Virus record (IMG/VR): IMGVR_UViG_3300028591_000072
Location: 32,001 to 96,000 of that record
Strand: one strand, 5' to 3'
Source of the DNA: a virus
Lineage: Duplodnaviria; Caudoviricetes
DNA: 64,000 nucleotides
Shown here piece by piece: positions 378-61,298 of this stretch. Under the pieces are notes generated by a model, which searched no databases, was not told the DNA's origin, and saw only the letters and a program-made list of their open reading frames with translations. The position numbers and the translations under genes were made by a program. Numbering within the stretch: the stretch's first letter is position 1; each line of letters begins with the position of its first letter.

Positions 378-432
378 TGCTTTGTGTTTTTATTGTTACA
401 CTTGAATTATAATCAAATTCTATGCCAAACTA

Positions 433-606
433 TTAAAATTCTCCGACAAAATTATGATTCAAATCATAAACAAAAGTATGGGCAAAGCCATTTATTTTCT
501 TCCAAAGTTCTGCGTTTTCTTTCAAATACTTCGCATTGTCAATGCTGCAAATTTGCGCACCCCCGAAACTACCCTTCACAGGTGTAAAGTAATAATATTC
601 TTTCAT
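433..606 (-). CDS. small hypothetical protein, 57 aa (MKEYYYFTPVKG...), below ORF-track cutoff
   Basis: Manual translation ATG 606 to TAA 433; perfect sigma54-like motif at 640-655. Confidence 0.65.
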   Translation of the reverse strand: MKEYYYFTPVKGSFGGAQICSIDNAKYLKENAELWKKINGFAHTFVYDLNHNFVGEF

Positions 607-657
607 TGCTTTTCGTTTTAGTGTTACACTATAATAGTAAGCAACAATCGTGCCAAA

Positions 658-873
658 CTAATTAAAATGAATTAGAATATCATTAATTTTTGCACCAAAA
701 ATTTCAATTTGCTCAGTAAGATACTCCCAAGAAAACAAATCATCGTCACCGAATCCGTATTTGTCACGGATATAATCCTCCTCATCGCCTTTGTATTTGG
801 CTTCAATTTCGTTTTCATCGGCATTCTCAATGAATAACTGATGCTCTTTGTGGTCAATGATTGCAAGTAACAT
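658..873 (-). CDS. hypothetical protein
   Basis: ORF with upstream motif at 909-924. Confidence 0.7.
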   Translation of the reverse strand: MLLAIIDHKEHQLFIENADENEIEAKYKGDEEDYIRDKYGFGDDDLFSWEYLTEQIEIFGAKINDILIHFN

Positions 874-928
874 AATAATTTGAATTAAAGTTATACACTA
901 CAATAATAGGCAAAAAGTGTGCCAAAAA

Positions 929-1339
929 TTACAATTTGGACACAATTTTTTCAATGAAAACCCAATCAATAGGTGTTTTATTTGTGTAAGCATACCCATT
1001 ACAATATGTTTTCTTTTCAAACTCAATGATTTTGCCCTTTGTATTATTAAGTTTCTCTTGTAGTAAAGATTTCCATTTCTTTACATCTTTGCCTTGCAGA
1101 TATTCAAGTACAACATTACCCGAAGCCGTCCAATCGTAGTAACTCGGATTCCACGGTTTTCCACAAAGTTCACTTGAATTTATGACAAAAATGTTTTTTG
1201 ATGCCCTCCTAATGTTATGCGGATTTTCTTTTGAAACTTCATTGATGGCTTCGGTTATTGCCAAAACTAATTTAGCCTCCAACTCCTTCAATTCGTTGGC
1301 AATATCGTCAAACCTTTTCAATATGTTTTTTACTTCCAT
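929..1339 (-). CDS. hypothetical protein
   Basis: ORF in the minus-strand cluster. Confidence 0.7.
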   Translation of the reverse strand: MEVKNILKRFDDIANELKELEAKLVLAITEAINEVSKENPHNIRRASKNIFVINSSELCGKPWNPSYYDWTASGNVVLEYLQGKDVKKWKSLLQEKLNNTKGKIIEFEKKTYCNGYAYTNKTPIDWVFIEKIVSKL

Positions 1340-1351
1340 AATGATTTTAAT

Positions 1352-1657
1352 TTAATATCCAAAGGCTTTCAACATAGCACCAAAACTATCAAATTCTATA
1401 CCAAACTCATCGTGGGCTTGGTTGCTTCCGCAAGAGCATTTTACAACTTCTTCACCGCTTCCACACTCGCAGAGGTCAATTCCCCAATGATTAACGCAGT
1501 GGTTGCAGCAATAAGTTTTAGTAAGTCTTTTATATTTGCGCAGGTCAAGACCTATTTTCTTTGCAGTCTTTGGGTACATACTATTCGATGCACCATTATC
1601 AAAGTTAATTGTAATTGCTCCGCAAGCACACTTAAAATACGATTCAATGTTTGCCAT
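1352..1657 (-). CDS. Cys-rich (SEC-C-like, CxCGS) hypothetical protein
   Basis: CACG, CCNHC, CECGSG and CSCGS motifs; promoter motif at 1693-1708. Confidence 0.65.
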   Translation of the reverse strand: MANIESYFKCACGAITINFDNGASNSMYPKTAKKIGLDLRKYKRLTKTYCCNHCVNHWGIDLCECGSGEEVVKCSCGSNQAHDEFGIEFDSFGAMLKAFGY

Positions 1658-1791
1658 AGTTCTTTGCGTTTTAATTGTTCACTACAATATAAAGCAATAA
1701 TCGTGCCAAAATTCATGAAAAAAGAAAATCGTGAAAACTTTTTTTGTTCCCACGAAATTCAAATGTTCACTTTATTGTTTTGAAAGCCCTA

Positions 1792-2379
1792 TCAATGTAA
1801 TCCTATTGCCTTTTCCCAATCATAGGAATCAATTTGGGAAGGTCTGAAAAAGCCGTTCAAGCCCTTCAGTGCCTCGCCAAGTTTTTTCACTGCATTTTCA
1901 ACTTGCTCCTTATAGCGGTCATAGTTTTCGATGGCATCTTCCCACTTGCCAATTTGCTCGTTGCAAAGTTTTATTTGCTCGTTGCACTCATTTTCGGCAC
2001 CTTCGGCAACAATGCGCCCTTCCTCGTTGACAAATGCCTTCTTGCAGTTGTGGATGCTTGTGTGATAGATTTCCTTGTCGAAATATATCGTGCTTCCGTT
2101 GATTTGCGTGTCACGATTGAAAAGGTAAATCTTCAAAGTCTTATAACCCATATTGTAAGGGTCAGAGATGCCAATGTTAGCACCGATTTTGCACTCTTTC
2201 AAGCGGTTTTCAATCTCTGTTTGGAAACGCTTGTTGAAAACCTTGCCTTCCATTTTCTTTGCGCTTTCGGCAATGATTTGGAAAACGGCAATGATAGTTT
2301 TATATCCACCAATGATGGCGTTTCCGTACTTTACGAAATCTTCTTTCTTGCTGAATCTATTTGCAGTTGTGTTTAGCAT
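1792..2379 (-). CDS. hypothetical protein
   Basis: 195 aa ORF; promoter motif at 2414-2429. Confidence 0.75.
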   Translation of the reverse strand: MLNTTANRFSKKEDFVKYGNAIIGGYKTIIAVFQIIAESAKKMEGKVFNKRFQTEIENRLKECKIGANIGISDPYNMGYKTLKIYLFNRDTQINGSTIYFDKEIYHTSIHNCKKAFVNEEGRIVAEGAENECNEQIKLCNEQIGKWEDAIENYDRYKEQVENAVKKLGEALKGLNGFFRPSQIDSYDWEKAIGLH

Positions 2380-2628
2380 AATTTTAATTTTTAATTGTTT
2401 GTACTTATTACCTTACAAATATCGTGCCAAACTATTCCTTCCACCATTCGGCAATCCAACTTCTTTTTGCACAAATTGGATATGTTTCCATTGCTTACTT
2501 TAAGGTTTTGCAGTGTGTATTGAATGAATAAAAACTACCTTTTAATCTAATGTGTACTTCCATAGTGTTTTTGTATTTGATTGTCCACTACAATTATATG
2601 CAAATTGTATGCCAAACTTGTTTTGAAA

Positions 2629-3018
2629 TCAAACAAATTTAGTAACCCATCCATTTTTATCCTTATAATAGTAATAGCCATCCCGAGACAAACAAGTTTT
2701 GTTTTTATTATACAAGTTGTTTTTTTTCAAAAACTCAACAAACCTATTATGGTATTCCTTAAATTTATTGTAATTAAGTTCAAGAATTGTATAGGCTTGC
2801 GTCCAACGATGTGACCTAACAATGTCATTCTGCAACCTTACAAAGTGTTCAAAAATCTCCGTAAGTTTTTCTCTATCCGCAAGTTTATCATCGTATTCCG
2901 CTATCTCAATCTCTGAAAGTTGCTCTACAACCGAAAGCCTAAATCTCCAATTCATTACTTTAATCATTGATTTTGCAGCATCGAATTGTTCAAGGTGTAT
3001 TTTTTGTAGTTCTGCCAT
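2629..3018 (-). CDS. hypothetical protein
   Basis: 129 aa ORF; variant promoter motif at 3054-3069. Confidence 0.7.
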   Translation of the reverse strand: MAELQKIHLEQFDAAKSMIKVMNWRFRLSVVEQLSEIEIAEYDDKLADREKLTEIFEHFVRLQNDIVRSHRWTQAYTILELNYNKFKEYHNRFVEFLKKNNLYNKNKTCLSRDGYYYYKDKNGWVTKFV

Positions 3019-3100
3019 TATATAAAGTATTTAAATCATACACCACAATAATACACAAAAACCATACCAAAAATAACGCATTTGCGTATATTAAATAAAA

Positions 3101-3126
3101 AAAGCGGGATTTTTTGTCCCGCTTTT
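3101..3126. terminator. intrinsic terminator
   Basis: AAAGCGGGA...TCCCGCTTTT hairpin with A/T tracts just downstream of 3146. Confidence 0.7.
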
Positions 3127-3145
3127 ATTTTGCTGAGTTGTGAAC

Positions 3146-3739
3146 TTATCTTTCAGCCCATTGAAGATTATCAACTCTATTGTTGTGGTAGTCACCATCA
3201 ATGTGGATAATCATATAGACCTTTGGGTCTTTCGCTTCAAGGAAGGCATCGGCAACCATATACTTTACATCTGGACAAGTGTTGAGGGTCTTTCCGTTTA
3301 CCTTTGCATTCAAGTGGAATTGCATTGCGTTTCTCGTTGGGGCATCGTATCCCTCGCTGATACTGCAATTCATAGCATTGTTGACATCAATGGTTTTTAA
3401 CCTGCCAAAATTGCTGACTTCATAGAAACAGCCATAGTCAACTTCTCCGTCAAAATACCTTCCAACATTTTGGACAGGCTTCCATTCTTCACCTTCGCAC
3501 TTTGCCACCATTTCGGCAACTTTCTTGTTATTGGGAAGGACAATACTATTAAAGTAGTCCTGCACACCCATATTTGCAGGTTTGGAAAAAACGACCTTTT
3601 TCTTTGGCTGAAAAATAATCTTATTCCCAAACTCGACAAAATCGGTTACGCTTACACCAAACTTTGAGGCAACCATCTTTGCGGTTTGCCTCGCACTGAA
3701 TCCCGAAGGAATACAGAATGAATCGTTCTTCTTAATCAT
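3146..3739 (-). CDS. NUMOD4 + HNH endonuclease-like protein
   Basis: EEWKPV...YEVSNFGRLK (NUMOD4) and IIHIDGDYHNNRVDNLQW (HNH_3-type). Confidence 0.75.
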   Translation of the reverse strand: MIKKNDSFCIPSGFSARQTAKMVASKFGVSVTDFVEFGNKIIFQPKKKVVFSKPANMGVQDYFNSIVLPNNKKVAEMVAKCEGEEWKPVQNVGRYFDGEVDYGCFYEVSNFGRLKTIDVNNAMNCSISEGYDAPTRNAMQFHLNAKVNGKTLNTCPDVKYMVADAFLEAKDPKVYMIIHIDGDYHNNRVDNLQWAER

Positions 3740-3815
3740 TGCTTTGTAATTTAGGGTTAAACATTTAATGAACTACTTTCATATATGCAAATACTATGCC
3801 GAAATTTGAATTTTT

Positions 3816-3962
3816 TCAAATTATTTCCAAATCAACACCACAAGGAGATACATTTATAATGTAATTTAATGCTTCTTCATGTGTTTCAAACTCGGTTTTT
3901 ACATCGGCATCTTCCCATTTTACGAAGTCACCATCTTCATTTTTGTAGGCTATTGTGTACAT
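3816..3962 (-). CDS. small hypothetical protein, 48 aa (MYTIAYKNEDG...)
   Basis: Internal ATG of the 3816..4148 ORF, directly downstream of the promoter motif at 3997-4012. Confidence 0.6.
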   Translation of the reverse strand: MYTIAYKNEDGDFVKWEDADVKTEFETHEEALNYIINVSPCGVDLEII

Positions 3963-4066
3963 TATATTTTGTGTTTTAAAATTACACTTCAATATATGCA
4001 AAAAACGTGCCGTTTTTTTCAAAAAAACACAAAAAAGGCGACATTTTTTTGCCGCCATTTTGATAA

Positions 4067-4516
4067 CTATTCTGACAATTTTCGTTGCAGGTCGCTTATA
4101 CGCTTGTAAAAACCTGCTGTGTGCATTGATTGTATTTTTAAATAGCAAGTGTCATAGTGGTGCATAAATTCATGCAACAATGTTTCTGAAAACACTTTTA
4201 TTGATATTGTTTGTTTGCGTATTGCAGTTGTGTTATAGATTGTAATTGTATTTAAAATAGGTTTGTAAAAACCAAAAGTTTTTGATTTTAATTTACCACT
4301 ATATCCCGTTGAATGAGGTTGTGGTGTGTTTGTAACAAGCACCGACACACTTGGAATGTGGAATTTGCCACAAAGGTAGTTTACCAATGCTTGCGCCAAT
4401 TTTTGCCTATTCCCATCCTGCAAAAGTTTTTGATATTCGGTTTTGCTAAACCTATTCAATGCAATCGTTTCAATTTTGTTTGACTTTTCGTAATCTTTTT
4501 CATTCGTGTTTTTCAT
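4067..4516 (-). CDS. putative Zn metallopeptidase (HExxH, SprT-like)
   Basis: TLLHEFMHH...H motif. Confidence 0.6.
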   Translation of the reverse strand: MKNTNEKDYEKSNKIETIALNRFSKTEYQKLLQDGNRQKLAQALVNYLCGKFHIPSVSVLVTNTPQPHSTGYSGKLKSKTFGFYKPILNTITIYNTTAIRKQTISIKVFSETLLHEFMHHYDTCYLKIQSMHTAGFYKRISDLQRKLSE

Positions 4517-4786
4517 GCCAATTGTATTTTAGTGTTACATTACAATGATAAACAAAAACCTTGCCAAAATTATAATTTGTAGAAAAATATTGACACTTTT
4601 TTAGTAAAAAAATCGTTTGGAAAATGCACAAAAACCAAACGAATATTTATAAAACCAAACTATTCGGACGAATAGCAATGCATTTTTTTAAAAAAGCAAA
4701 AACAAAATGATTATGTAATTACAATAACATACAATTCTAATGCCAAAATTGATTGATTTGAATTTTTACAACACAAAAAATGAGAA

Positions 4787-5615: not shown

Positions 5616-6734
5616 TCAAAAAATTTTTTTCCCGGAATTTTTATCAAAATAATTATAAAGTTTATTATGTTTCCATAGCCAATGATAAACAGTAAAATTA
5701 TTAAGTCTTAACTCATTTTTTGTTTCATATTTTGTAACAACACTTAAAATAAAATCATCAGTATAGTTATTTTTTACGGCTAATATTTTGAATTTTGTAT
5801 TTGGAAAGCATTCTTTTTTTAAATTTAAATTAATCATTTTATTATACATAGTCCTATTTTTCCTATACATTTCTTCTTGATTTTTATATTTTTTTGCTTC
5901 TAAAATAACGTCTTCAACACTAATTTCTGTTTGTTTGGTATTACCTCCAAGGCTTCCGCATTTACATTTATTAATCAAAACATATCCATTATCTTTGTAA
6001 TAATTTGCCCAATATTGTTCTTTTTCTTTAGATTCAAGCCTTGTTAAATTTGTCTCAAGTATTTTAGGCTCAGGTATTTCGACATTATTTTCTTCTGAAT
6101 ATTTAAATACGCTATCTTTCTTTTTTTTATACCTATGTTGAACATCTCTTTTATGTAAACTAAAAGTTAATCCAACATAAACATGCTTATTAGGAAACTC
6201 GTAAACGTAAACGGTTTGTGTTCTTGAGTTACTTTCAATATCTTCAAGCCAAATATAATCATCAATCCACCTATTGGATTTAGATTTATAATACGCTTTT
6301 TTGTCAAATCTCCTAAAATCCATGCGTGTTTTATATTTCTTTGCGGTTTCAAGGCAAAACTCGTATGTGTATATTTGTTTTTTTTCATTGTAGCATTTCC
6401 AACACCCAACACTATTAAGATGATTTTTTGGCTTTTGATAAAATTCTCCATGCGCTGGACAAATTATGCACACACTTGTGTTTGAGTCAATATATTTTGT
6501 TTTACTATAATCATATTTGTCACCATGAATTTTTTTTGCCTTATCTATGAAAATTTTTGTTTTTTCTTCGCAAGATAAAGTGTGCTTTATTGTTTTTTTA
6601 CAAATTGGGCATTCTTGCCCTTGCAAATGTTTATATGGCTCAATTTCAAACTCTCCATGTTCTTCACAAACTAATTTTATTGGTGTATGAGAATTTACAT
6701 AATTAATGGGAACTATATACTTGATGGCACAAAG
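5616..6734 (-). pseudogene. 5'-truncated GIY-YIG homing endonuclease with Cys/His (DUF723-like) repeats
   Basis: VYVYEF...VYVGLT...E...N GIY-YIG core; the frame continues upstream of 6626 (NYVNSHTPIKLVCEEHGEF) with no ATG and ends at a dispersed repeat (6709-6733) and a stop at 6735. Confidence 0.65.
6709..6733 (+). repeat. dispersed 25-bp repeat G(G/T)AACTATRTAC(A/T)TGATGGYACAAA, copy 1
   Basis: Near-identical copies at 33543-33567 (-) and 39861-39885 (+); partial copies at 26147-26158, 58729-58738, 58752-58763, 58869-58880. Confidence 0.8.
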
Positions 6735-9513: not shown

Positions 9514-9544
9514 AAAGGGCAACGAGTTATCGCTACCCATTTTC
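9514..9544. terminator. bidirectional terminator; sequence-related hairpins at 22981-23010 and 32887-32918
   Basis: GGGYRRCGA(G/A)T(T/A)ATCGYYACCC hairpins at three convergent gene junctions. Confidence 0.7.
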
Positions 9545-9560
9545 GTTTAATTTGATAAAA

Positions 9561-12011
9561 TCAAATTTTATACAACCCAAGTTCTTTACTATAAGAATAT
9601 CCTTGTAGTAAGAATGGCCTATCGCTTCTGTTTGCCAATCCAACACATTTTTCTATGGTTGCATCGCCCCACTTCTTTATTCCATACACATATTTAAGTT
9701 CTTTATCCGTTGGGAAATTAAATCCTGTATTATTTGAAATCATAAAGTTATATCTTTCTTTGGACTCGATGCCGTTTGACTCTTCATCTAAGATATACGA
9801 ATCACATACGATTGGCTTCATATATTCACCACCGATTTTTGCTGTTACATATATATTATTGGAAGAACCACGATAAGACACTTCCTTTGACAAGCATTCA
9901 TAATCTTCGTTCACGAAAGAACTTCCACCTTTATATCTAATATTATAAAGTTCTTCTATGCTTGTTTTATAAAGTTTTGAAATGAAAAGTAAAAGTTGTT
10001 TTTCATTCTTTTTGTTGAACTCATTTCTTTCATTATACAATTCTGACTTTGTTATTTTAGTACCATCCATTGATGCAAGTCTGTCACACCATTTGCTTCT
10101 TAATTCATTATTGTATATACGATTTAAAAACCTATTATATTTTCTATTTGAATATAGAACAACGGTATAATTCACTTCGTCATATTCATTGAATCTTGAT
10201 GAACGTCCGCAACAAATTTGAACGGTACTTTCAGGTGTTGGTGTATAATGGATAATTGACATCGAAGAAATGTCAAGGCCAGTCCCAATAATAGGAGTAC
10301 CTATTACAGTTTTTTTGTCTTTTGATTCAAAAGTAGAATGCTTTCCATATAACTTATAAATCAATGATTCATTGTTATCTCTATCTTCTATTGAAAATCT
10401 TGCGTGTTCAAGAATAAAGTCACAGCCATTCTTTTTATGGGCAGTAAATAGGTTTTGTGCCAAATCAACTGTAGGTGCAATGGCAAAACAATTACAGTCA
10501 TTTTTTATTTCCAAGGATTCTGGAGTTTGGATTCTCTGTACATTAATATGAACCTTTGTATCACCACCATACACTTTAGATGGAATATATTCTGTTTTCC
10601 CACAGAATTTTTCGATTATGCCATTAAATCCACTTGCGCTTAAAAGCAACGTCTTTGCGTTAGTGTATTTGTTCCTTGCATAAAGCATATTAATGAAAGC
10701 GCCGAATATTGGTTCACCACAGAAGAATTCATGGTACTCATCAAAAATGATGTCACTAAAATAGCAATCCAAAAGGAAAGTTGACAATTCATTTCTTGAA
10801 TACCTGCTAAGGAATGTGTCAATGACAGAAACAACGATGTCACACTTTGAAACCGAATTTAATGGAATATTTGGCCCATCATTGAAATTGCACTTTTGAA
10901 TATCATTGCCATACATCAGGCACACTTTCACTTCATCGTTCATTCCCATTGTTTCCAATTCCGAAACAATTGAGCAGTAAGTTCCTTCAGCAATGATGGT
11001 TCTTGGAACAACCCACATCACCTTGCGACCAATTTCAAAATGGTACAACAAGCCAACAAGAGTTTTACCAAAGCCAGCAGAAGCGCCAACATCGCAAATG
11101 TTATGCTTGCTGTCTTTAATTTTATTCACAATACCACGCTGTTCCTGAAGTCTGCTTTCATCATAATGGCCCAAATCACACTTCTTGTTATAGGAGCTAA
11201 TTAAATGGTTTGTGAATATGCTTTTGATGTAATCACAATCCAAATTCAAGATTCTTTCATTATCAAATACCATTGAAGAAATGGCCCTGTCAGCATAGAC
11301 AATTAAAGCCCTGATGATTGCAAATTCCCAAGACTTATCCTGATACTTTTGTAGAGAACCCTGATAAGATGAGTTTTTCAATGGATTCAATAAAAAATTA
11401 TTAAGTGAATTGTCTGGTTCATTATAAACAAGTTCAGTTTCTATTTTAATTGGTGTTACCTCATCAATATCGCTAACATTATTCAAACAGAAATCTTTGT
11501 TAGTTGATACGCCAAATCCGAATTTTTCGTCAATATAAGACAGGCATTCGTTGTAAATTGACTTCATACTTTCAATACACTCGTTATCGCTAACAAGCAA
11601 ATCGCCAATAATGTCTGATGACTTTAATGAAAAATCGTCAATTACGGTGTGATGATACAAGATTGCAGAACGAATAGGTCTATACTTCGTTGTGCTAAGA
11701 GAACCAACAAATGAAGACGCAAATGCCCAAGAAATTGAATTGTGCCTGTAAAATCTGCAATTCTTTTTCAATGGATAAATTTCAATGCCCTCAGCATTGA
11801 TTCCTGAATTCTTGTTAATAATGTACTCTTGGAAATCTTTTGAGCACTTTCCAATGTCATGAAGTGCCGCCGCAATAGCAATTTTAGATAATAAATCGTT
11901 ATTTGTCTCTTTTAGGTTTTTTCTCGCCGTTTCTACAGCTAAATTGATAACCATCTTAGTGTGGTCAATTAAAGAAATTTTTGTTTCCCCATTAATTTTT
12001 GAAAATTTCAT
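9561..12011 (-). CDS. cas3: CRISPR-associated helicase/nuclease Cas3 (N-terminal HD + SF2 helicase, no Cas2 fusion)
   Basis: LIDH...ALHDIGK...H...ILYHH...ADRAIS HD motifs; ASAGFGKT Walker A; IFDEYH motif II; HARF and GLDIS motifs; adjacent to the array. Confidence 0.93.
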   Translation of the reverse strand: MKFSKINGETKISLIDHTKMVINLAVETARKNLKETNNDLLSKIAIAAALHDIGKCSKDFQEYIINKNSGINAEGIEIYPLKKNCRFYRHNSISWAFASSFVGSLSTTKYRPIRSAILYHHTVIDDFSLKSSDIIGDLLVSDNECIESMKSIYNECLSYIDEKFGFGVSTNKDFCLNNVSDIDEVTPIKIETELVYNEPDNSLNNFLLNPLKNSSYQGSLQKYQDKSWEFAIIRALIVYADRAISSMVFDNERILNLDCDYIKSIFTNHLISSYNKKCDLGHYDESRLQEQRGIVNKIKDSKHNICDVGASAGFGKTLVGLLYHFEIGRKVMWVVPRTIIAEGTYCSIVSELETMGMNDEVKVCLMYGNDIQKCNFNDGPNIPLNSVSKCDIVVSVIDTFLSRYSRNELSTFLLDCYFSDIIFDEYHEFFCGEPIFGAFINMLYARNKYTNAKTLLLSASGFNGIIEKFCGKTEYIPSKVYGGDTKVHINVQRIQTPESLEIKNDCNCFAIAPTVDLAQNLFTAHKKNGCDFILEHARFSIEDRDNNESLIYKLYGKHSTFESKDKKTVIGTPIIGTGLDISSMSIIHYTPTPESTVQICCGRSSRFNEYDEVNYTVVLYSNRKYNRFLNRIYNNELRSKWCDRLASMDGTKITKSELYNERNEFNKKNEKQLLLFISKLYKTSIEELYNIRYKGGSSFVNEDYECLSKEVSYRGSSNNIYVTAKIGGEYMKPIVCDSYILDEESNGIESKERYNFMISNNTGFNFPTDKELKYVYGIKKWGDATIEKCVGLANRSDRPFLLQGYSYSKELGLYKI

Positions 12012-12186
12012 TACTATAAAATTTTTTAATTTTATTTTTCGCCACCCGCCGTTAACTATGACTATGCAATATCAGTTGGGTAGCATCCTCTAATACTGCA
12101 TTTTGTTTAAATATATAATAAATTTTAGAAAAAAACAAATTCCTTTTTTGGGGAATAGTAAAAAATGTTTTTAATTAACAATTATA

Positions 12187-13471
12187 ATTATGATTCCATT
12201 TTGGATAATAGTAATAAAAGCACACATAACAGGATATTGCACGTCACCAACATTTTGATTCCGTTTTAGATGATAATACTAAACATTTTCAAGTAATCCT
12301 TCATTTTCCTGTGCTTTGTTATGATTCCATTTAAAAAAGATAGTTTTAAAAATGCACTAATTTTATGCTTTGTGTCATCGCTATTGTGATTCTATTTCAG
12401 ATAATAGTAATAAAACGTTCAATTTGAGTGAACTGTCCGATAATACCATTGTGATTCCATTTTCGAAATATAGTAATAAAAGTATCAACGCAACGCAAAC
12501 CAGTTCGTGCCATGTTGTGATTTCATTTAGAATGATGGTACTAAATAGTTATAGCCAAATCCATGGATGTGTAATTGTTGTTGTGATTCCATTTAGAAAA
12601 ATAATAATAAACAGTTCGTTTTGGATTTGAGCATCTGACCAACCGTTGCGATTCCCATTAGAAAAATAGTACTAAACATTAGCGTTCCATCTTTTTGAGT
12701 AAAGACGTTTGTTGTGATTCCCATTAGAAAAATAGTATTAAATAACAAAATCTATCGTGATGCTCGTTATCGGGAGTTATGATTCCATTTAGAATAATAG
12801 TACTAAACAGTATCTCAAGCAGTTCTTACTCCAAGAGCTCTGTTGTGATTCCCTTTAGAATAATAGTACTAAACAGTTTGGGGCGTAACAGAGTTATACT
12901 CAGCACCGTTGTGATTCCCTTTAGAATAATAGTACTAAACAGTCCCTTATCAGCAAACCTTTATATGTATTTAGTTGTGATTCCCTTTAGAATAATAGTA
13001 CTAAACAGTATTTATAGAATTTTTTCAAGGTTTCTTGGTGTTGTGATTCCCTTTAGAATAATAGTACTAAACAGTAATGGTTTGATGGCTGTGAAGTGCA
13101 TCATAGTTGTGATTCCCTTTAGAATAATAGTACTAAACAGTTCCATCTGTTAGACTTGTTACACCCATATTGTTGTGATTCCCTTTAGAATAATAGTACT
13201 AAACAGTAAAGCAAATTGATAAGATTTATGAAACATTGTTGTGATTCCCTTTAGAATAATAGTACTAAACAGTGTAGGCAACAGTAGTGTGTTTGACCCT
13301 CACGTTGTGATTCCCTTTAGAATAATAGTACTAAACAGTTATGGTCTTTATGATAAACTTCACAGCCATGTTGTGATTCCCTTTAGAATAATAGTACTAA
13401 ACAGTATTATTCACCTTATCAACAACAGCACCTACGTTGTGATTCCCTTTAGAATAATAGTACTAAACAGT
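12187..13471. CRISPR. CRISPR array: 20 repeats of 36 bp (GTTGTGATTCCCTTTAGAATAATAGTACTAAACAGT) and 19 spacers of 29-30 bp
   Basis: 10 identical repeats at 66-bp period (12842...13436) plus 10 progressively degenerate ones (12776, 12711, 12645, 12580, 12514, 12448, 12383, 12318, 12252, 12187). Confidence 0.97.
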
Positions 13472-13517
13472 GTATTCTTTATAATTAAATAATTCACAGT
13501 CAGTTATAAAAGAATTA

Positions 13518-14588
13518 TCAATGAATTTTTGCCCATTCTGATTCATAATCTTCCCAGCATACTTCGTTTTTTTCATCCTTAATACAAACAACTTCACAAA
13601 TTCCTCCATCAAGGAAAGTGCAAAATCCTTTTCCGTTGAGCAGAGATTCGTAAATTTTTTCATTGTAGATAGGAACGATTATTTGTCCATTAACAGAAAT
13701 TCTCTTTATTTTATCACCAATGTTATTACGAAGATATGTTTTTGTTATGGTTCCATCTATCCCATAGCCATTTTTAAGGTCTGTATTTGAACTAACTGTC
13801 GGATTACCGTATCTAAAGACGTTGTAAAACCAAGCAGATTGGTTTCCGCCTTTATCCCAAAGAGAAACCATTTCATCGTAAAACTTTCCAACTTTTTCAA
13901 TATATGATTCATCGGAAGACATATTATGAAGCAGGTGAACCATTTCTCCAAATGTATATGTTTTTCTAACATCATTTACATTAAGAATTTCGTTGAGAAA
14001 TGAAATGAATCTAACATAACCTGGATGATTTTCATTGTCGTTAAAAAGTCTCAGCAACATTGAAAAGTCATAAGTTCCCGGTGCTGAAACCTTTTCACCA
14101 TTTTCATCGAAATAGAATATTGTTTCGCCACCACGGTTGCTATTGATGGCGGACTTCCTTGATTGCATAAATTCACCGCCACAATTGTTCATTCCATTAT
14201 TAACAATACCGTAATACTCACCATCTTCACCAACAATCTGTTTGATAAATACATTATCAGGGTCAATTGGGGATTTAAGTTTATAGTAAGAATTCTTAGC
14301 CATTTCGTCACAGGCTTCGATACGCTTAACTGGAAAACCATTCGCTTTATTTGGCTTTGTTGGAACAGGTATTCCACCAATAAGAGAAATGAGCATATTA
14401 CTTAGTGTTGTATATGGAATTGGGTTACCAATGTCATGGCCTTTCTTTATGAACTTAATATCAACACCCTCGTCTTCTGAAATTTTCTTTATTACATCGC
14501 TTTTCTTGGCAATTTTAGGTATAAGATGCTCGTACATCATTCCACCATTTCTAAGCCTAAGAAGCATATATTTTTTAAATTCACTCAT
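13518..14588 (-). CDS. cas5: large Cas5 (Cas5fv-like, type I-F2/I-Fv-related)
   Basis: Position between cas7 and array; about 356 aa; N-terminal strand plus TTLSNMLISLIG helix and C-terminal VNGQIIV...GFCTFLDGG resemble Cas5 RRM ends; probable start is ATG 14588 because the GTG at 14627 lies inside a hairpin. Confidence 0.6.
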   Translation of the reverse strand: MSEFKKYMLLRLRNGGMMYEHLIPKIAKKSDVIKKISEDEGVDIKFIKKGHDIGNPIPYTTLSNMLISLIGGIPVPTKPNKANGFPVKRIEACDEMAKNSYYKLKSPIDPDNVFIKQIVGEDGEYYGIVNNGMNNCGGEFMQSRKSAINSNRGGETIFYFDENGEKVSAPGTYDFSMLLRLFNDNENHPGYVRFISFLNEILNVNDVRKTYTFGEMVHLLHNMSSDESYIEKVGKFYDEMVSLWDKGGNQSAWFYNVFRYGNPTVSSNTDLKNGYGIDGTITKTYLRNNIGDKIKRISVNGQIIVPIYNEKIYESLLNGKGFCTFLDGGICEVVCIKDEKNEVCWEDYESEWAKIH

Positions 14589-14605
14589 ATAATCATAAAA
14601 TTTAT

Positions 14606-14630
14606 GGTGTGGGCCGTTATTACCCACACC
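14606..14630 (-). promoter_or_regulatory. GC-rich hairpin between cas7 and cas5
   Basis: GGTGTGGG-N9-CCCACACC perfect 8-bp inverted repeat. Confidence 0.55.
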
Positions 14631-14650: not shown

Positions 14651-15778
14651 TTATTCTACCACTTCTTCAGATGGATTATTTTTTCCGCTTCTACGTGCCT
14701 TTTTTTCAGACTTTTTGTCAGCAGCCACTAATTTAGCCGCCTCAGCAGCCTTTTTGCGTCCTTCCCATTCTTGGTGGTTTGAAGGTTCATAATATTGGCT
14801 AATTTCAAAAACAGGAAGTTCGTCAACCGATTTAAGTTCAATCCAGCCCTCTTCATCATTGATGATGTCGTTGCAAGAGTAAATCGGCTTATATTCAACT
14901 TTTACAGTGTGAGCAATCGCACCGTTTTTAACAATGTTGATGTCCAAAAGGCGGCCAGCCAATGTTTTAATAAGATAATTAACAAACTCATCATCCATTT
15001 TTGCGCCATATTCTCCATATGATTCACCATAAATTTCGTTGTTTGAAGAAAACACCCCAACAGTGTACGGAATCCTTCCATATGTCTTCACAAATGCTTT
15101 TTCAAGGTAGTTGCAACCTTCAATGTATGAAGAAGGCACAGCCAATCTGTCAAAGTATTTATCAAAAGAAAGGAACTGAGCCGTTTTCACATCGAAATAA
15201 GAATCGAAAACATATTTTGTTCTACCAGTGGTTTCCTTATAGAAAAGAGAAGTATCATTTCTGTCACCTGATTTGGTGAACATTTCCATGTAAATGACTG
15301 CGCCTTCGTCAATTGCATCAGTTAAGTTAAAGCAACTTTTCTTTCCGAATGACATGTTCTTATCTGCACACATATAGCCACGTGAATATCCAAGAGGATT
15401 TGCAATAAAGTTGCAAGCAGCAGCAGGGAAATTCCAAATCATTGGGTCAGCGTCACATGTTCCTCCAAAAATTGCGTGTCTGATGCAATTGTAGGAAATT
15501 TTAAGGTTGTACCCAAATTCAGGAACTTTCTTCTTTGCTTCATCAATGCTAACGCCATTTTCTTCGGCATATTTTTCAACAGCCTCAATGTATGCTTCGT
15601 GGCTTTGATGAAGCCCATAAAATTCTTTCTTTGCAAAAGTTTGGTTGTCATTAAATGCATTACCTGCACAATGTCCGTTAATAAAAAATTTTTGGTCAGT
15701 ACTATCATAATTAACAACACCATGGCCGTTAAGTGTAGTGCGGAATTTCACCGCCAAAATTTTATTATTTTTTTTCAT
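14651..15778 (-). CDS. cas7: Cas7 backbone subunit, Cas7fv (type I-F2/I-Fv)-like
   Basis: GHGVVNY, ISYNCIRHAIF, RGY, GDRNDTSLFYKETTG and QFLSFDKYFDR parallel, in order, the Cas7fv motifs as I recall them (GHGVVNW, ISQNCIRHHLF, GARDSTSFFSKTTFG, QFISLDKKFDR). Confidence 0.85.
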   Translation of the reverse strand: MKKNNKILAVKFRTTLNGHGVVNYDSTDQKFFINGHCAGNAFNDNQTFAKKEFYGLHQSHEAYIEAVEKYAEENGVSIDEAKKKVPEFGYNLKISYNCIRHAIFGGTCDADPMIWNFPAAACNFIANPLGYSRGYMCADKNMSFGKKSCFNLTDAIDEGAVIYMEMFTKSGDRNDTSLFYKETTGRTKYVFDSYFDVKTAQFLSFDKYFDRLAVPSSYIEGCNYLEKAFVKTYGRIPYTVGVFSSNNEIYGESYGEYGAKMDDEFVNYLIKTLAGRLLDINIVKNGAIAHTVKVEYKPIYSCNDIINDEEGWIELKSVDELPVFEISQYYEPSNHQEWEGRKKAAEAAKLVAADKKSEKKARRSGKNNPSEEVVE

Positions 15779-15804: not shown

Positions 15805-16503
15805 TTAATTATTTAGTTTTTTAGTTGTAGCAAACCCAAATCCACATCCAGTAGAGTTTCCAAAGCCAAGGTTAATAAGTTTTTCCCTTGCGGCCTTTTT
15901 ACCCTTAATAACAAGCATAATTGTTGATGATGGGGTGATACTTTGGTTTTCACATCCGAATTTCAATTTAACAAGTTTCTTTTTCCAATTCTCTTTGTGG
16001 AATGGCTGAAATTTAATTGTATTCACATCGCCTTCGGAAATACCATTATTGATTAATTTCTTTTTACTGTGTTCTAAAAGAATATTCAAGAAATCTTCAT
16101 CATTGAATGTAATTTCTTTGTTTGTTTTTGGGCTTTTAAGCCTTATGTTCGTAATTCTTACAACATCATATAATCTAGAAGTCTTATTTGCAATACATTC
16201 AAACCCGATAAACTGCATTGTTTGTAATTTAAGGTCTGTTTGTTCGGATAATCCGCAAAGAAAATCAGATAGAAATTCTTCATTGTCAGAAGAGACGCAA
16301 AAAAAGCCTCCATTTTTGAATTGAATCATATTTGTGCCTTTGTCATATTTTCCACCATGCATTGTTGAAACAGAGTATGGAGAAAATGAATCGTGCCATT
16401 TGTTGTTTTTTCCCAAAACGGTATGAACAAACCCGTTCACATAGTCATTTGTCGGCTTGTCAAACAATTCCGTATTAGGAGCAAAATTTAATTTAATAAT
16501 CAT
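15805..16503 (-). CDS. cas6: Cas6 crRNA-processing endoribonuclease (I-A/I-B/III-like, not Cas6f/Csy4)
   Basis: C-terminal G-rich loop GFGNSTGCGFG; N-terminal WHD.FS.YSVS motif. Confidence 0.88.
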   Translation of the reverse strand: MIIKLNFAPNTELFDKPTNDYVNGFVHTVLGKNNKWHDSFSPYSVSTMHGGKYDKGTNMIQFKNGGFFCVSSDNEEFLSDFLCGLSEQTDLKLQTMQFIGFECIANKTSRLYDVVRITNIRLKSPKTNKEITFNDEDFLNILLEHSKKKLINNGISEGDVNTIKFQPFHKENWKKKLVKLKFGCENQSITPSSTIMLVIKGKKAAREKLINLGFGNSTGCGFGFATTKKLNN

Positions 16504-16530: not shown

Positions 16531-17322
16531 TTATTTTTTTATAATTTGTTTCTCATCAAAAACCGTGTCAAACTTTTCAAATTGTGTTTTTAAGACAAAA
16601 ATTTTTTCGTTTTTTTCTCCATTGTTTGAAGACATTCCATCTTGCATTTTCTTTTGGTATATTGGAATAAAGTCAGATGGGGCATTGTATTCACTAATCA
16701 TTAATATATGGCCATCATTTGCTGTTTTTCTGCACCAATTCCAAAATTCTTCATTGTCGAAGTTTATTTTATAACCTTTTGTATTACCATATGGAGGGTC
16801 ACAATATATAAATGCTTTTCCTTTTACATGGTCCATGATTGATTTGTAGTCACAGCAAATGAAGTCTGTGTTATTTATCTGTTTGAAACCGTTTATTTGC
16901 TTAACAGTGCCGCTATATGCTTCATATATATGGTTTTCGTTTTTATTTGGATTGTAATTTGCGTATCCATTCCACCAAGAGCCTCCATATGAACAAGCAC
17001 AACCCACATATCCTATTATGGAATCTTTATATCTACCTGTTTTGTTTTTGTAGTCTTCTTTTACATCATAATATTGTTCTTTGGCCAAATACTTAACAAA
17101 GGTCCACATATCTTCAGTAAAATTGCCATTCTTTACATCATTCCAAAACGCTATGACGTATTGGTTTGTGTCACATGTCAGTTTCTTGTTGAAATCAATT
17201 GCCGACAAACTGTTTGCGCCACCACAAAATGGTTCAATATATGTTGTGCATCCTTCAATACCCTTTGCGACAAGGCTATTGATTATTTTCGTCATTTTCT
17301 TTTTGCTTCCCTGGTATCTCAT
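16531..17322 (-). CDS. DNA adenine methyltransferase (D12/Dam class)
   Basis: MRYQGSK, YIEPFCGG and IYCDPPY motifs. Confidence 0.9.
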   Translation of the reverse strand: MRYQGSKKKMTKIINSLVAKGIEGCTTYIEPFCGGANSLSAIDFNKKLTCDTNQYVIAFWNDVKNGNFTEDMWTFVKYLAKEQYYDVKEDYKNKTGRYKDSIIGYVGCACSYGGSWWNGYANYNPNKNENHIYEAYSGTVKQINGFKQINNTDFICCDYKSIMDHVKGKAFIYCDPPYGNTKGYKINFDNEEFWNWCRKTANDGHILMISEYNAPSDFIPIYQKKMQDGMSSNNGEKNEKIFVLKTQFEKFDTVFDEKQIIKK

Positions 17323-18121
17323 AATTAAAGTCTTTAATGATGTTAAATTTTGGTTGGCCGTATTCGTTTATTAATTCATTTAATCTAAATTTTGTTTTTT
17401 TGTCTTTTTCAGCAATTAATACTTTTCCTGTTTTGTCTAATTCTTTTTTATTATATATGATATATTCAATGACTCCGTTTTTATCAATTTCATCTTGCAA
17501 TATTTTTTCTTTCCTCATTGCATTTAGCCTGTCTCTTAGTAGACTTTCATTTTCTTTTGCATAAAAGAAAAATGACTGAGGCTTAACTTGCATATACCTA
17601 ACATACGATGGGTCACTATGCTTTTTTATTATAAAGTCAATTCCAATTTCAGCATCAAGTTTCCCAACACATGGCTCAACAATAAAGTCATCTGAAGATT
17701 CCAATATGAACGAGACCATATACCTTTCCACAAAGTGCCCGTCATATGTTTCAGTTATTATATGATTAACCAAATCATCATAGCAGTCCTGTATTGTTAC
17801 ATTGGAATTTTTATCTTTTTTTATTATTGATTCATAATAACATTTTGCAAGATACTTCAATTGTTCGACACTTCTTCCAAAATTTTCATTACCTTTGTGA
17901 TTCTTATATGAAAACTCGTCATTATAATACGCTGTGTATTTGTTGAAAAAATCTTCAGGTGATGTCGGATGTAGTATTTTATAAAGATAAGAGCAATTTC
18001 CGACATATGGCCTTCCTGAAAATTTATTCCTGTATATTAGACTATATTTTTCGTTGAATTTCTTTTTTACCTTTTCATAATATTCTTTTTCTTTAAATGA
18101 ACAATCTATATTTATATCCAA
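17276..18121 (-). CDS. putative type II restriction endonuclease (PD-(D/E)XK fold)
   Basis: E...D.EIGIDFII...MQVKP.SF (D...QxK); overlaps the methylase start. Confidence 0.55.
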   Translation of the reverse strand: MDINIDCSFKEKEYYEKVKKKFNEKYSLIYRNKFSGRPYVGNCSYLYKILHPTSPEDFFNKYTAYYNDEFSYKNHKGNENFGRSVEQLKYLAKCYYESIIKKDKNSNVTIQDCYDDLVNHIITETYDGHFVERYMVSFILESSDDFIVEPCVGKLDAEIGIDFIIKKHSDPSYVRYMQVKPQSFFFYAKENESLLRDRLNAMRKEKILQDEIDKNGVIEYIIYNKKELDKTGKVLIAEKDKKTKFRLNELINEYGQPKFNIIKDFNYEIPGKQKENDENNQ

Positions 18122-22959: not shown

Positions 22960-23027
22960 AAAGTACATTCACAAAATAATAAAGGGTGACGAGTTATCGC
23001 CACCCTTTTTTAATAATAAGATTTAAT

Positions 23028-32883: not shown

Positions 32884-32949
32884 AACAATGGGGTAGCGAA
32901 TAATCGTTACCCCATTTTTATAGGTAATTATATAATTGTTGGCACAAGA

Positions 32950-60320: not shown

Positions 60321-61298
60321 TCATATTAGCGTTTTAATATACCCATCAATCGCATTAATCAAACTTTCAATACTATTGTATATATAGGAAAAATAATTGT
60401 TTGGGATTTCTTTTTCAAATGACACATAAAACATTTTAATTCCATTTTTCATACAATTTATATATTTTGCCAAATCACGTTTTGATTGTAACAAATATCC
60501 ATTTTCACCGCCAAATCGTTCTAAAGGAATAAAATGTTGTCTACCTTGATACTCAATTCCTATTTTATAATCAGGAAGATAAAAATCAATAGAAGAAAAT
60601 GATGTTTTACTTTGTAACCACGGTTCTTTATGCTGATACTCAACTTTTCCGTATTTCTCAATTAGTGCGTTTAAAACGATTTTTTCACTTCTATTTAGTT
60701 TTCGTCCACATTCAGGACAGCCGCATCCGTGTAAATGGTCTAATGGCTTTTGATAAAATTCTCCATGCTCAGGGCATATTATACAAACCTTAATTCTATT
60801 ATTAATATATTCAACTTTAGAATAATCGTATTTTGTTCCGTGTGTTTCTATTGATTTTCTAATAAAAGAATCTGTTGTTCCTTTTTGATATAAGCCTTTT
60901 TTTGCATTTCCACATATTGGACATCCTTGCCCGCATAAATGTCTTTGTGGAGTCTGAATAAATTCACCATGTTCCGGACAAATAATTCTTATTTTTGAAG
61001 AAATTCCTTTATAGTCATTTTTAATGTAAGCATATTTGTAATTGTGTTTTTTATTTGCTTTTTCTTCAAACTCTTCAAAACTAATTCTTGGAGTATTTTT
61101 TCTTTCATAATAACATTTTGGGCATCCGCATCCACTAAGATGGTCATGCGGCGTTTGCGAAAAAATACCATGCTTTTTGCAAATAATTAGCACAGGTTTA
61201 TCTCTACCATCATATTCAACTTTTGAATAGTCATATAAATCACCATGCTTTATTTTTGATTTCTTTATAAATTCTTCTGTATTAGATTTTACCGGCAT
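60321..61298 (-). CDS. putative homing endonuclease (3 DUF723-like repeats + PD-(D/E)XK domain)
   Basis: YDYSKVEY...IIC..HG.F.Q.P..HL.G.GCP.C x3; IDFYLP...GIEYQGRQH. Confidence 0.8.
   Translation of the reverse strand: MPVKSNTEEFIKKSKIKHGDLYDYSKVEYDGRDKPVLIICKKHGIFSQTPHDHLSGCGCPKCYYERKNTPRISFEEFEEKANKKHNYKYAYIKNDYKGISSKIRIICPEHGEFIQTPQRHLCGQGCPICGNAKKGLYQKGTTDSFIRKSIETHGTKYDYSKVEYINNRIKVCIICPEHGEFYQKPLDHLHGCGCPECGRKLNRSEKIVLNALIEKYGKVEYQHKEPWLQSKTSFSSIDFYLPDYKIGIEYQGRQHFIPLERFGGENGYLLQSKRDLAKYINCMKNGIKMFYVSFEKEIPNNYFSYIYNSIESLINAIDGYIKTLI

Follow-up and report, generated by a model that had tools for sequence, protein, structure and literature searches.

How does a phage whose CRISPR-Cas locus (short palindromic repeats that are clustered and regularly interspaced, with their associated genes) encodes type I effector proteins and neither Cas1 nor Cas2 obtain the spacers of its array? 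This question is raised by the 64,000-nucleotide stretch analysed here (the window), which covers bases 32001-96000 of the virus record IMGVR_UViG_3300028591_000072. The record, 302,581 bases long and with an estimated completeness of 82%, is best represented among sheep gut sequencing runs and corresponds to what we describe as a sheep-rumen jumbo phage. On the minus strand of the window lie, in this order, cas6, cas7, cas5, a CRISPR array and cas3, with the array between cas5 and cas3. Searches for Cas1 (two models) and Cas2 gave no match in the phage record, and the locus carries no cas9, cas1, or cas2 (trans-activating CRISPR RNA, tracrRNA, was not searched for). We consider it probable that the type II-C Cas1-Cas2 integrase of the host fills this array, which the Cas6, Cascade, and Cas3 proteins of the phage would then use.

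An array with the format of type II-C arrays

The array (12187..13471, minus strand) is built of 20 repeats, each of 36 bp, that enclose 19 spacers; most spacers (14) measure 30 bp and the other five 29 bp, which gives a period of 65-66 bp. On the plus strand, its repeats start with GTTGTGATT and end with AAACAGT. The ten repeats at 12842-13471 are identical and the ten on the cas3 side decay progressively; the new end, at 13471, is separated from the cas5 stop codon (13518) by exactly 46 bp. A preliminary description of this DNA had already reported the repeat length and both repeat ends, spacers of 29-30 bp, and pristine repeats at the 13471 end about 46 bp from cas5, all of which we could verify. 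Strains from two other sequencing runs have the old cas3-side spacers in common and no cover for the newest ones. An array growing next to cas5 would give this picture, though pieces of this kind can also go missing from contigs. The CRISPR RNA (crRNA) is predicted to be read from the minus strand, like the cas genes. No second array of this kind was found in the 302.6-kb record. A frame on the plus strand stays open over several units through the 66-bp period (open reading frames, ORFs, 12779-13153 and 13241-13492), probably as a by-product of that period.

The phage array has the format of type II-C arrays, namely a leader-distal GTTGTG end, repeats of 36 or 47 bp, and spacers of ~30 bp added at the opposite end. 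A scan of bacterial genomes for arrays with the phage-type repeat start and a 66-bp period retrieved 75 arrays with repeats of 36 bp, 39 of which have cas9 or a II-C cas1 in the flanking DNA retrieved and none this type I module. Ten large ORFs beside the bacterial arrays without visible cas9 are housekeeping or unassigned genes, none of them encoding a Cas protein. In 38 of the 39 II-C arrays, as in the phage, the cas genes lie on the strand opposite to GTTG. Of 16 phage arrays, 14 have their degenerate repeats on the GTTG side, as do 7 of the 8 informative II-C arrays, and the share of 30-bp spacers (85% versus 79%) does not distinguish phage from II-C arrays (p 0.11). One array with a phage-like repeat start (GTTGTGATTCCC), in a Bernardetiaceae genome bin (L070:19-252), lies beside housekeeping genes at a contig end.

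The II-C repeat ends given in the preliminary description thus exist in bacterial loci, and its claim that new spacers enter at the end opposite the GTTG side agrees both with the decay data and with published work (PMC8092290). Its comparison with II-C arrays held for the ends and the polarity; as to length, most Bacteroidaceae II-C repeats are of 47 bp and not 36 bp. It had also considered that such repeats might belong to bacterial type I loci; no array with these ends was found beside this type I family. Borrowing in trans, which it had cited for a VI-B array fed by II-C machinery, has precedents: the leader-distal GTTGT end is the same in II-C and VI-B arrays and the II-C cas1 is needed for VI-B acquisition (PMC8092290), and a further precedent for II-C Cas1-Cas2 acting in trans exists (bioRxiv 2024.10.25.620265).

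A II-C-like leader

The II-C-like leader (13472..13531, minus strand) comprises the 46 bp of intergenic DNA and probably extends into the last codons of cas5. A 46-bp gap occurs in five related loci whose gap sequences are unrelated. The T-tract of II-C leaders (about -55 to -60) coincides in this clade with the last cas5 codons, and the gap may be constant because the T-tract lies in the end of cas5. Within the leader of the window, two 13-mers resembling binding sites of the integration host factor (IHF) are arranged head to head at 13482-13494 (-23..-11) and 13494-13506 (-35..-23), each with 7 of the 9 defined consensus bases; the -35 site includes the IHF-like box noticed previously at 13497-13506. 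In the II-C and phage leader sets alike, the IHF-type consensus fits best at -23 in forward and at -35 in reverse orientation. No IHF/HU gene was found in the phage record.

A weight matrix trained solely on the 39 II-C leaders gave 13 phage leaders selected by protein a score of 0.8, compared with -13.1 +/- 1.9 for shuffled sequences (0 of 3000 shuffles as high), with a peak at offset 0 to -1 and a steep fall past a shift of one base; two leaders (L209 and L211) were offset by one base in this scoring. Nine phage leaders selected by repeat pattern score similarly. The II-C leader motifs at a fixed distance from the first repeat are therefore evident at the level of the family and weak for this locus alone. 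In one relative (L005:3080-3160), cas5 reads through almost the whole leader, which is thus also coding, and a perfect IHF-type 13-mer is kept at -23..-11.

At the other end of the array, an AT-rich stretch of 175 bp (12012..12186, minus strand) separates it from cas3. We rejected this stretch as a leader, as the repeats decay on that side and the distal flanks score like shuffles. It is conserved in close relatives, two of which (L001 and L005) carry a TAnnTTTG-type motif in it, and is probably the cas3 promoter. A separate scan for promoters gave a result not above chance.

A Cas6-type hairpin on the other strand

Read from the minus strand, the same repeats contain a hairpin with a 3-bp stem (repeat positions 18-20 with 26-28) and a 5-nt loop, located at 13444..13454 in the first repeat, which is the predicted Cas6 site. 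The usual substrate of Cas6 is a hairpin followed by an 8-nt handle. Here, the predicted 5' handle, AUCACAAC (8 nt, 13436..13443, minus strand), with a cut position placed by the 8-nt handle rule of type I systems, corresponds in reverse complement to the start of the II-C repeat. Over 19 phage repeats, 56 of 57 cells are paired, with two-sided changes; all three stem pairs are present in 18 of the 19 and in none of 36 reversed II-C repeats, and exactly 8 nt are left after the stem. The simplest history would be that a II-C repeat was altered beside its conserved end, yielding a Cas6 site.

The preliminary description had likewise assigned the repeat interior to Cas6, and the conserved hairpin over a predicted 8-nt minus-strand handle agrees with this, but the stem is another one, of 3 bp. 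The TTTAG/CTAAA stem that it had proposed is no more stable than in shuffled sequences (z -0.6). Relatives do not conserve it either: 60% of their cells are paired, and 479 of 500 shuffles are as high. The old repeats (12187-12811 in the window, and those of L003, L005, and L170) diverge singly, yet neither their handle end nor the period of 65-66 bp is lost, suggesting that selection still acts on the old guides.

A predicted minimal interference module

The locus is Cas8-less and I-F2-like, and no locus of its family has space for cas8 or cas11. Its backbone protein (14651..15778, minus strand, 375 aa) is Cas7fv-like, with matches to NF040577 (E 1e-22, below the cut-off of that model) and PF28157, and the profile of its family matches the Cas7fv of PDB 5O6U with an E of 2e-42. 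Cas6 (15805..16503, minus strand, 232 aa) is of the canonical, non-Cas6f kind, above the cut-off of PF01881 and matching TIGR01877 with an E of 9e-11, and its sequence has a C-terminal glycine-rich loop. The Cas3 protein (9561..12011, minus strand, 816 aa), an HD nuclease plus helicase with HD, Walker A, and DExH motifs, stands alone, its N-terminus being the HD domain, without fusion to Cas2. The longest ORF of the Cas5fv-like protein (13518..14627, minus strand) has 369 aa, although the true start is probably an ATG 13 codons later (356 aa). This protein had no family match in profile searches; the best structural matches of its AlphaFold model (predicted local distance difference test score, pLDDT, 82) are 336- and 331-residue chains of I-F2 Cascade (Foldseek E 0.007), and its likeness to the I-F2 Cas5 chain is middling (VIA Z 7.0, root-mean-square deviation 3.5 over 127 residues). 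Sequence searches of Cas5 and Cas6 against the PDB gave no matches. Pieces of the locus and the array are present in RNA run X2, as contigs from which neither strand nor transcription can be read.

Two peculiarities concern these genes. In one relative (L003:4571-6996), cas3 is split over two overlapping ORFs, an HD part and a helicase part, by a frameshift or an assembly error. A strong 9-bp hairpin at 14606-14630 of the window lies between cas7 and the probable true start of cas5, where close relatives also have a gap of 40-80 bp; it could help to set the ratio of the subunits or act as a signal for processing without Cas6.

Spacer targets

Three spacers, all given here on the minus strand, have targets outside arrays. 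Spacer 6 (13076..13105) matches a contig of run X6 perfectly (30/30), within a reading frame resembling an HNH endonuclease: with its non-repeat flanks joined, the target forms an open frame with an HHKDHN motif, which we take to mark the HNH endonuclease family. The phage strain of that run has spacers 7-19 in common with ours, and its array contig does not show spacer 6. The target site of spacer 6 is matched on its other strand, at 28 of 30 positions, by spacer 2 (13340..13369), and spacer 8 (12944..12973) has two differences to a non-array contig of run X3.

The three bases preceding these targets (-3..-1) are CTT, TTG, and TCA, two of the targets being mismatched and the three too few to fix a protospacer adjacent motif (PAM). 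On the leader side, TYYN lies directly 5' of the protospacer in 3/3 and a more distant 5-mer is shared by two; read as a II-C PAM, these flanks (AAGACCAT, CAAACCAT, and TGAAATCC) conform to NRRA in 3/3 and to ACCAT in 2/3. Such leader-side flanks would suit a type I PAM of relaxed specificity as well as a motif of the Cas9 type. No targets were found in the phage's own record, in the INPHARED phages (five arrays searched), in related jumbo phages, in 401 + 296 Bacteroidaceae genomes (at best 5 mismatches, which we treat as chance), or in the IMG/VR or JGI scans, and none of 1305 array spacers from the retrieved loci matched this phage.

A family of jumbo-phage loci

The profile of this Cas7 collects 501 clusters at 50% identity, with one weak match over 401 Bacteroidota genomes and no relatives among cultured phages. 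Close relatives from animal-associated metagenomes retain the gene order and the array. When virus records (up to 597 kb) were scanned with the repeat pattern, 21 stretches emerged; the Cas7 of this family is present in 12 of 15 such records and cas1 in none, three of them being at least 90% complete. Because this set had been chosen by repeat, loci were also fetched by Cas7 alone: among these (25-45% identity), a full or partial repeat could be read in eight, and each of the eight has this array format, as has every other retrieved locus whose repeat is readable. Throughout the family, the array is linked to an intact cas6-7-5-3 set. Phage-encoded cas1 or cas2 elsewhere, which the preliminary description had named as evidence against borrowing, did not appear in the record, and cas1 is absent from 16 related records, including four that are at least 90% complete. 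These loci may well constitute an undescribed, widespread type I subtype of jumbo phages with two-faced arrays, offering class 2 integration signals in one direction and a class 1 hairpin and handle in the other. Some members have additional arrays: a 597-kb phage carries a second array of the same family ~30 kb from its cas locus (G007:C1:595614-596484, L017), with no cas genes in the DNA examined, and G001 and G002 have split or extra arrays.

Who fills the array?

Several traits point to a Bacteroidota host: a Shine-Dalgarno motif is found in 3 of 221 phage genes, TAnnTTTG occurs 24 times versus 13.4 +/- 3.5, and the named homologues of one phage gene are from Prevotella. In such a host, the jumbo phage would bring a minimal I-F2-like interference module (Cas6, Cas7fv-like, Cas5fv-like, and Cas3) and outsource adaptation. 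During infection, the II-C Cas1-Cas2 of the host, together with host DNA-bending proteins and perhaps Cas9, would insert spacers at the cas5-proximal end. The array would be transcribed with the cas operon, in the direction opposite to that of a II-C array, and the 3-bp hairpin gained in the repeat interior would let the phage Cas6 cut 8 nt from the repeat end. With the array read backwards, that end of a II-C prespacer which carries the PAM would come to lie on the 5' side of the protospacer, the side on which type I complexes recognise theirs. Cascade and Cas3 would then destroy other mobile DNA, for instance carriers of the HNH endonuclease gene.

A number of observations weigh against this proposal. 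The shared 9-nt repeat end and the period, unlike the remaining features, were partly built into the pattern of the bacterial scan, and the closest II-C repeat is identical at only 24 of 36 positions. The window's own leader scores weakly on the II-C profile (p about 0.08), and the comparison of leaders with that profile took shuffles, rather than type I leaders, as its control; because the loci are related, the shuffle figure overstates independence. The record, being 82% complete, lacks 18% of the genome, three protospacers do not fix a PAM, and neither a host genome nor a host spacer has been tied to the phage. Among 151 Bacteroidaceae genomes, about 45 have 47-bp II-C-type arrays and 2 have 36-bp ones, and in Riemerella, which has a longer II-C repeat, the II-C system did not feed the VI-B array (PMC8092290). 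Either the host is one of the rare carriers of 36-bp II-C arrays, or the integrase accepts a repeat one helical turn shorter, a tolerance that PMC8092290 doubts in the case of Riemerella.

Other explanations have to be set against the same evidence. An array of class 2 origin might now be filled by another integrase with the same ruler, such as a VI-B1 RT-Cas1/Cas2 (RT, reverse transcriptase) of gut bacteria or a phage protein that has diverged beyond the reach of Cas1 profiles. Gut VI-B1 RT-Cas1 systems exist and acquire spacers by themselves (PMC11662929), VI-B arrays likewise have 36-bp repeats and 30-bp spacers and are read leader-to-array, 36-bp II-C arrays are scarce in Bacteroidaceae, and the missing part of the phage genome leaves room for such a protein. 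We nevertheless regard this as unlikely: the phage leader fits a profile built from II-C loci, its repeat agrees at 24/36 with the best II-C repeat and at 16/36 with one of two VI-B repeats (by hand count) and lacks the VI-B terminal stem, and Cas13b occurs in only 2 of 401 Bacteroidota genomes. Copying of spacers by recombination, from host II-C arrays or from those of other phages, would be allowed by the shared repeat ends and spacer length, but the strict polarity, the identical leader-end repeats, and the conserved, phased leader are traces of an integrase, and no phage spacer matched a host array among the loci compared, which makes this origin very improbable.

The array could also serve chiefly to guide the host's Cas9 or Cas13b, the adjoining type I genes being secondary, as the II-C-like repeat start on the plus strand might suggest. 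Phages that lack effectors of their own presumably rely on Cas proteins of the host (PMC7162821). We give this little credence, given that the phage repeats depart from II-C ones right after base 9, where tracrRNA pairing would go on, that in 18 of 19 loci the altered bases form a hairpin on the opposite strand, and that the array is tied to an intact cas6-7-5-3 set family-wide. Lastly, the likeness to II-C arrays might be a coincidence, an ordinary type I array being filled by a type I Cas1-Cas2 of the host. Short AT-rich motifs can converge, and IHF-like sites are also found in type I-E and I-F leaders. Such convergence is hardly credible when repeat end, repeat length, spacer ruler, polarity, and leader phasing are all II-C-like, when I-F2 arrays have 27-bp repeats and 32-bp spacers (PMC12956352), and when the Cas7 family has a single weak match in 401 Bacteroidota genomes. 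Acquisition by a host II-C Cas1-Cas2 thus stays our preferred explanation; the preliminary description had come to this reading, which the II-C-like leader now supports further.

Genomic surroundings

Directly upstream of cas6, on the same strand, a Dam-type methylase gene (TIGR00571) and an overlapping unannotated gene of 281 aa occupy positions 16531-18121 of the window, and the cas loci of L001, L002, and L213 likewise have methylase genes at their flanks. A hairpin resembling a terminator lies after cas3 (9517-9538) and recurs at 22981-23010 and 32888-32917. Intergenic repeats of ~50-60 bp with TGCCAAA ends precede small minus-strand genes at 381-4574 and are a probable phage promoter motif. 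The ORFs 5616-6626 and 60321-61298 have internal repeats in common and appear to resemble homing endonucleases.

Comparison with known systems

Type I-F2 (I-Fv) of Shewanella putrefaciens CN-32 (PMC12956352; PDB 5O6U and 9G44) resembles the phage system in its Cas7fv-like protein and, at middling structural scores, its Cas5fv-like protein, the absence of Cas8 and Cas11, its Cas3 effector, and a hairpin with a 5-nt loop over an 8-nt handle. By contrast, the phage has a canonical Cas6 instead of Cas6f2, a Cas3 unfused to Cas2, and no cas1, its array combines 36-bp repeats with spacers of 29-30 bp instead of the 27-28-bp repeats and 32-bp spacers of I-F2 (PMC12956352), and none of the three targets, a small number of which two are mismatched, has the CC of the GG/CC PAM of I-F2 directly on its 5' side; moreover, the phage module is found in phage-like contigs. 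The phage effector is thus of I-F2-like design, but membership in I-F2 fails on Cas6, Cas2-3, and array format. The family adds many type I effectors of compact, four-protein design whose Cas6, and perhaps whose PAM, are unlike those of I-F2.

With the type II-C systems of Bacteroidota and other phyla (Cas9 plus a TIGR03639 Cas1), the phage array shares the repeat start, the length of the 36-bp subset, the 30-bp spacers, the polarity, and the leader motifs with their phasing; it differs in having no cas9, cas1, or cas2 nearby and a changed repeat interior, and Bacteroidaceae II-C repeats are mostly of 47 bp. If our proposal holds, the family points to the few DNA signals required by a II-C integrase, namely the repeat end, the leader phasing, and perhaps a length of 36 versus 47 bp, a difference of one helical turn. 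The VI-B locus of Flavobacterium columnare (PMC8092290) is also cas1-less, with a 36-bp repeat, the same leader-distal GTTGT end as II-C, and a read direction opposite to it. The phage borrower differs in being a class 1, DNA-targeting system with a Cas6-type hairpin in place of the VI-B terminal stem; no such stem, and no large adjoining ORF besides cas3, was seen at the phage array.

Cas1-less CRISPR-Cas systems of huge phages likewise lack cas1 and cas2 and have compact arrays with spacers against mobile elements, but those compared here belong to a variant of I-C and to class 2, with no Cas7fv module and no arrays of II-C format among them, and the same source treats the spacer source of such phage systems as an open question (PMC7162821). 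Our literature search found no paper on the present combination, although this check of novelty is incomplete. Cas1-less elements that borrow a co-resident integrase, as proposed here, are known from the plasmid-borne IV-A3 system, which uses host I-E adaptation (PMC11656645), and from the Listeria VI-A locus, which uses II-C Cas1-Cas2 (bioRxiv 2024.10.25.620265). In both, as in the other borrowing cases that we found in the literature, donor and borrower belong to the same class, whereas the phage would combine a class 1 array with a class 2 integrase. With this family, adaptation that crosses both the class boundary and the line between host and virus can be tested directly: if our proposal is correct, the phage wields a class 1 weapon that is programmed by a class 2 integrase belonging to its host.
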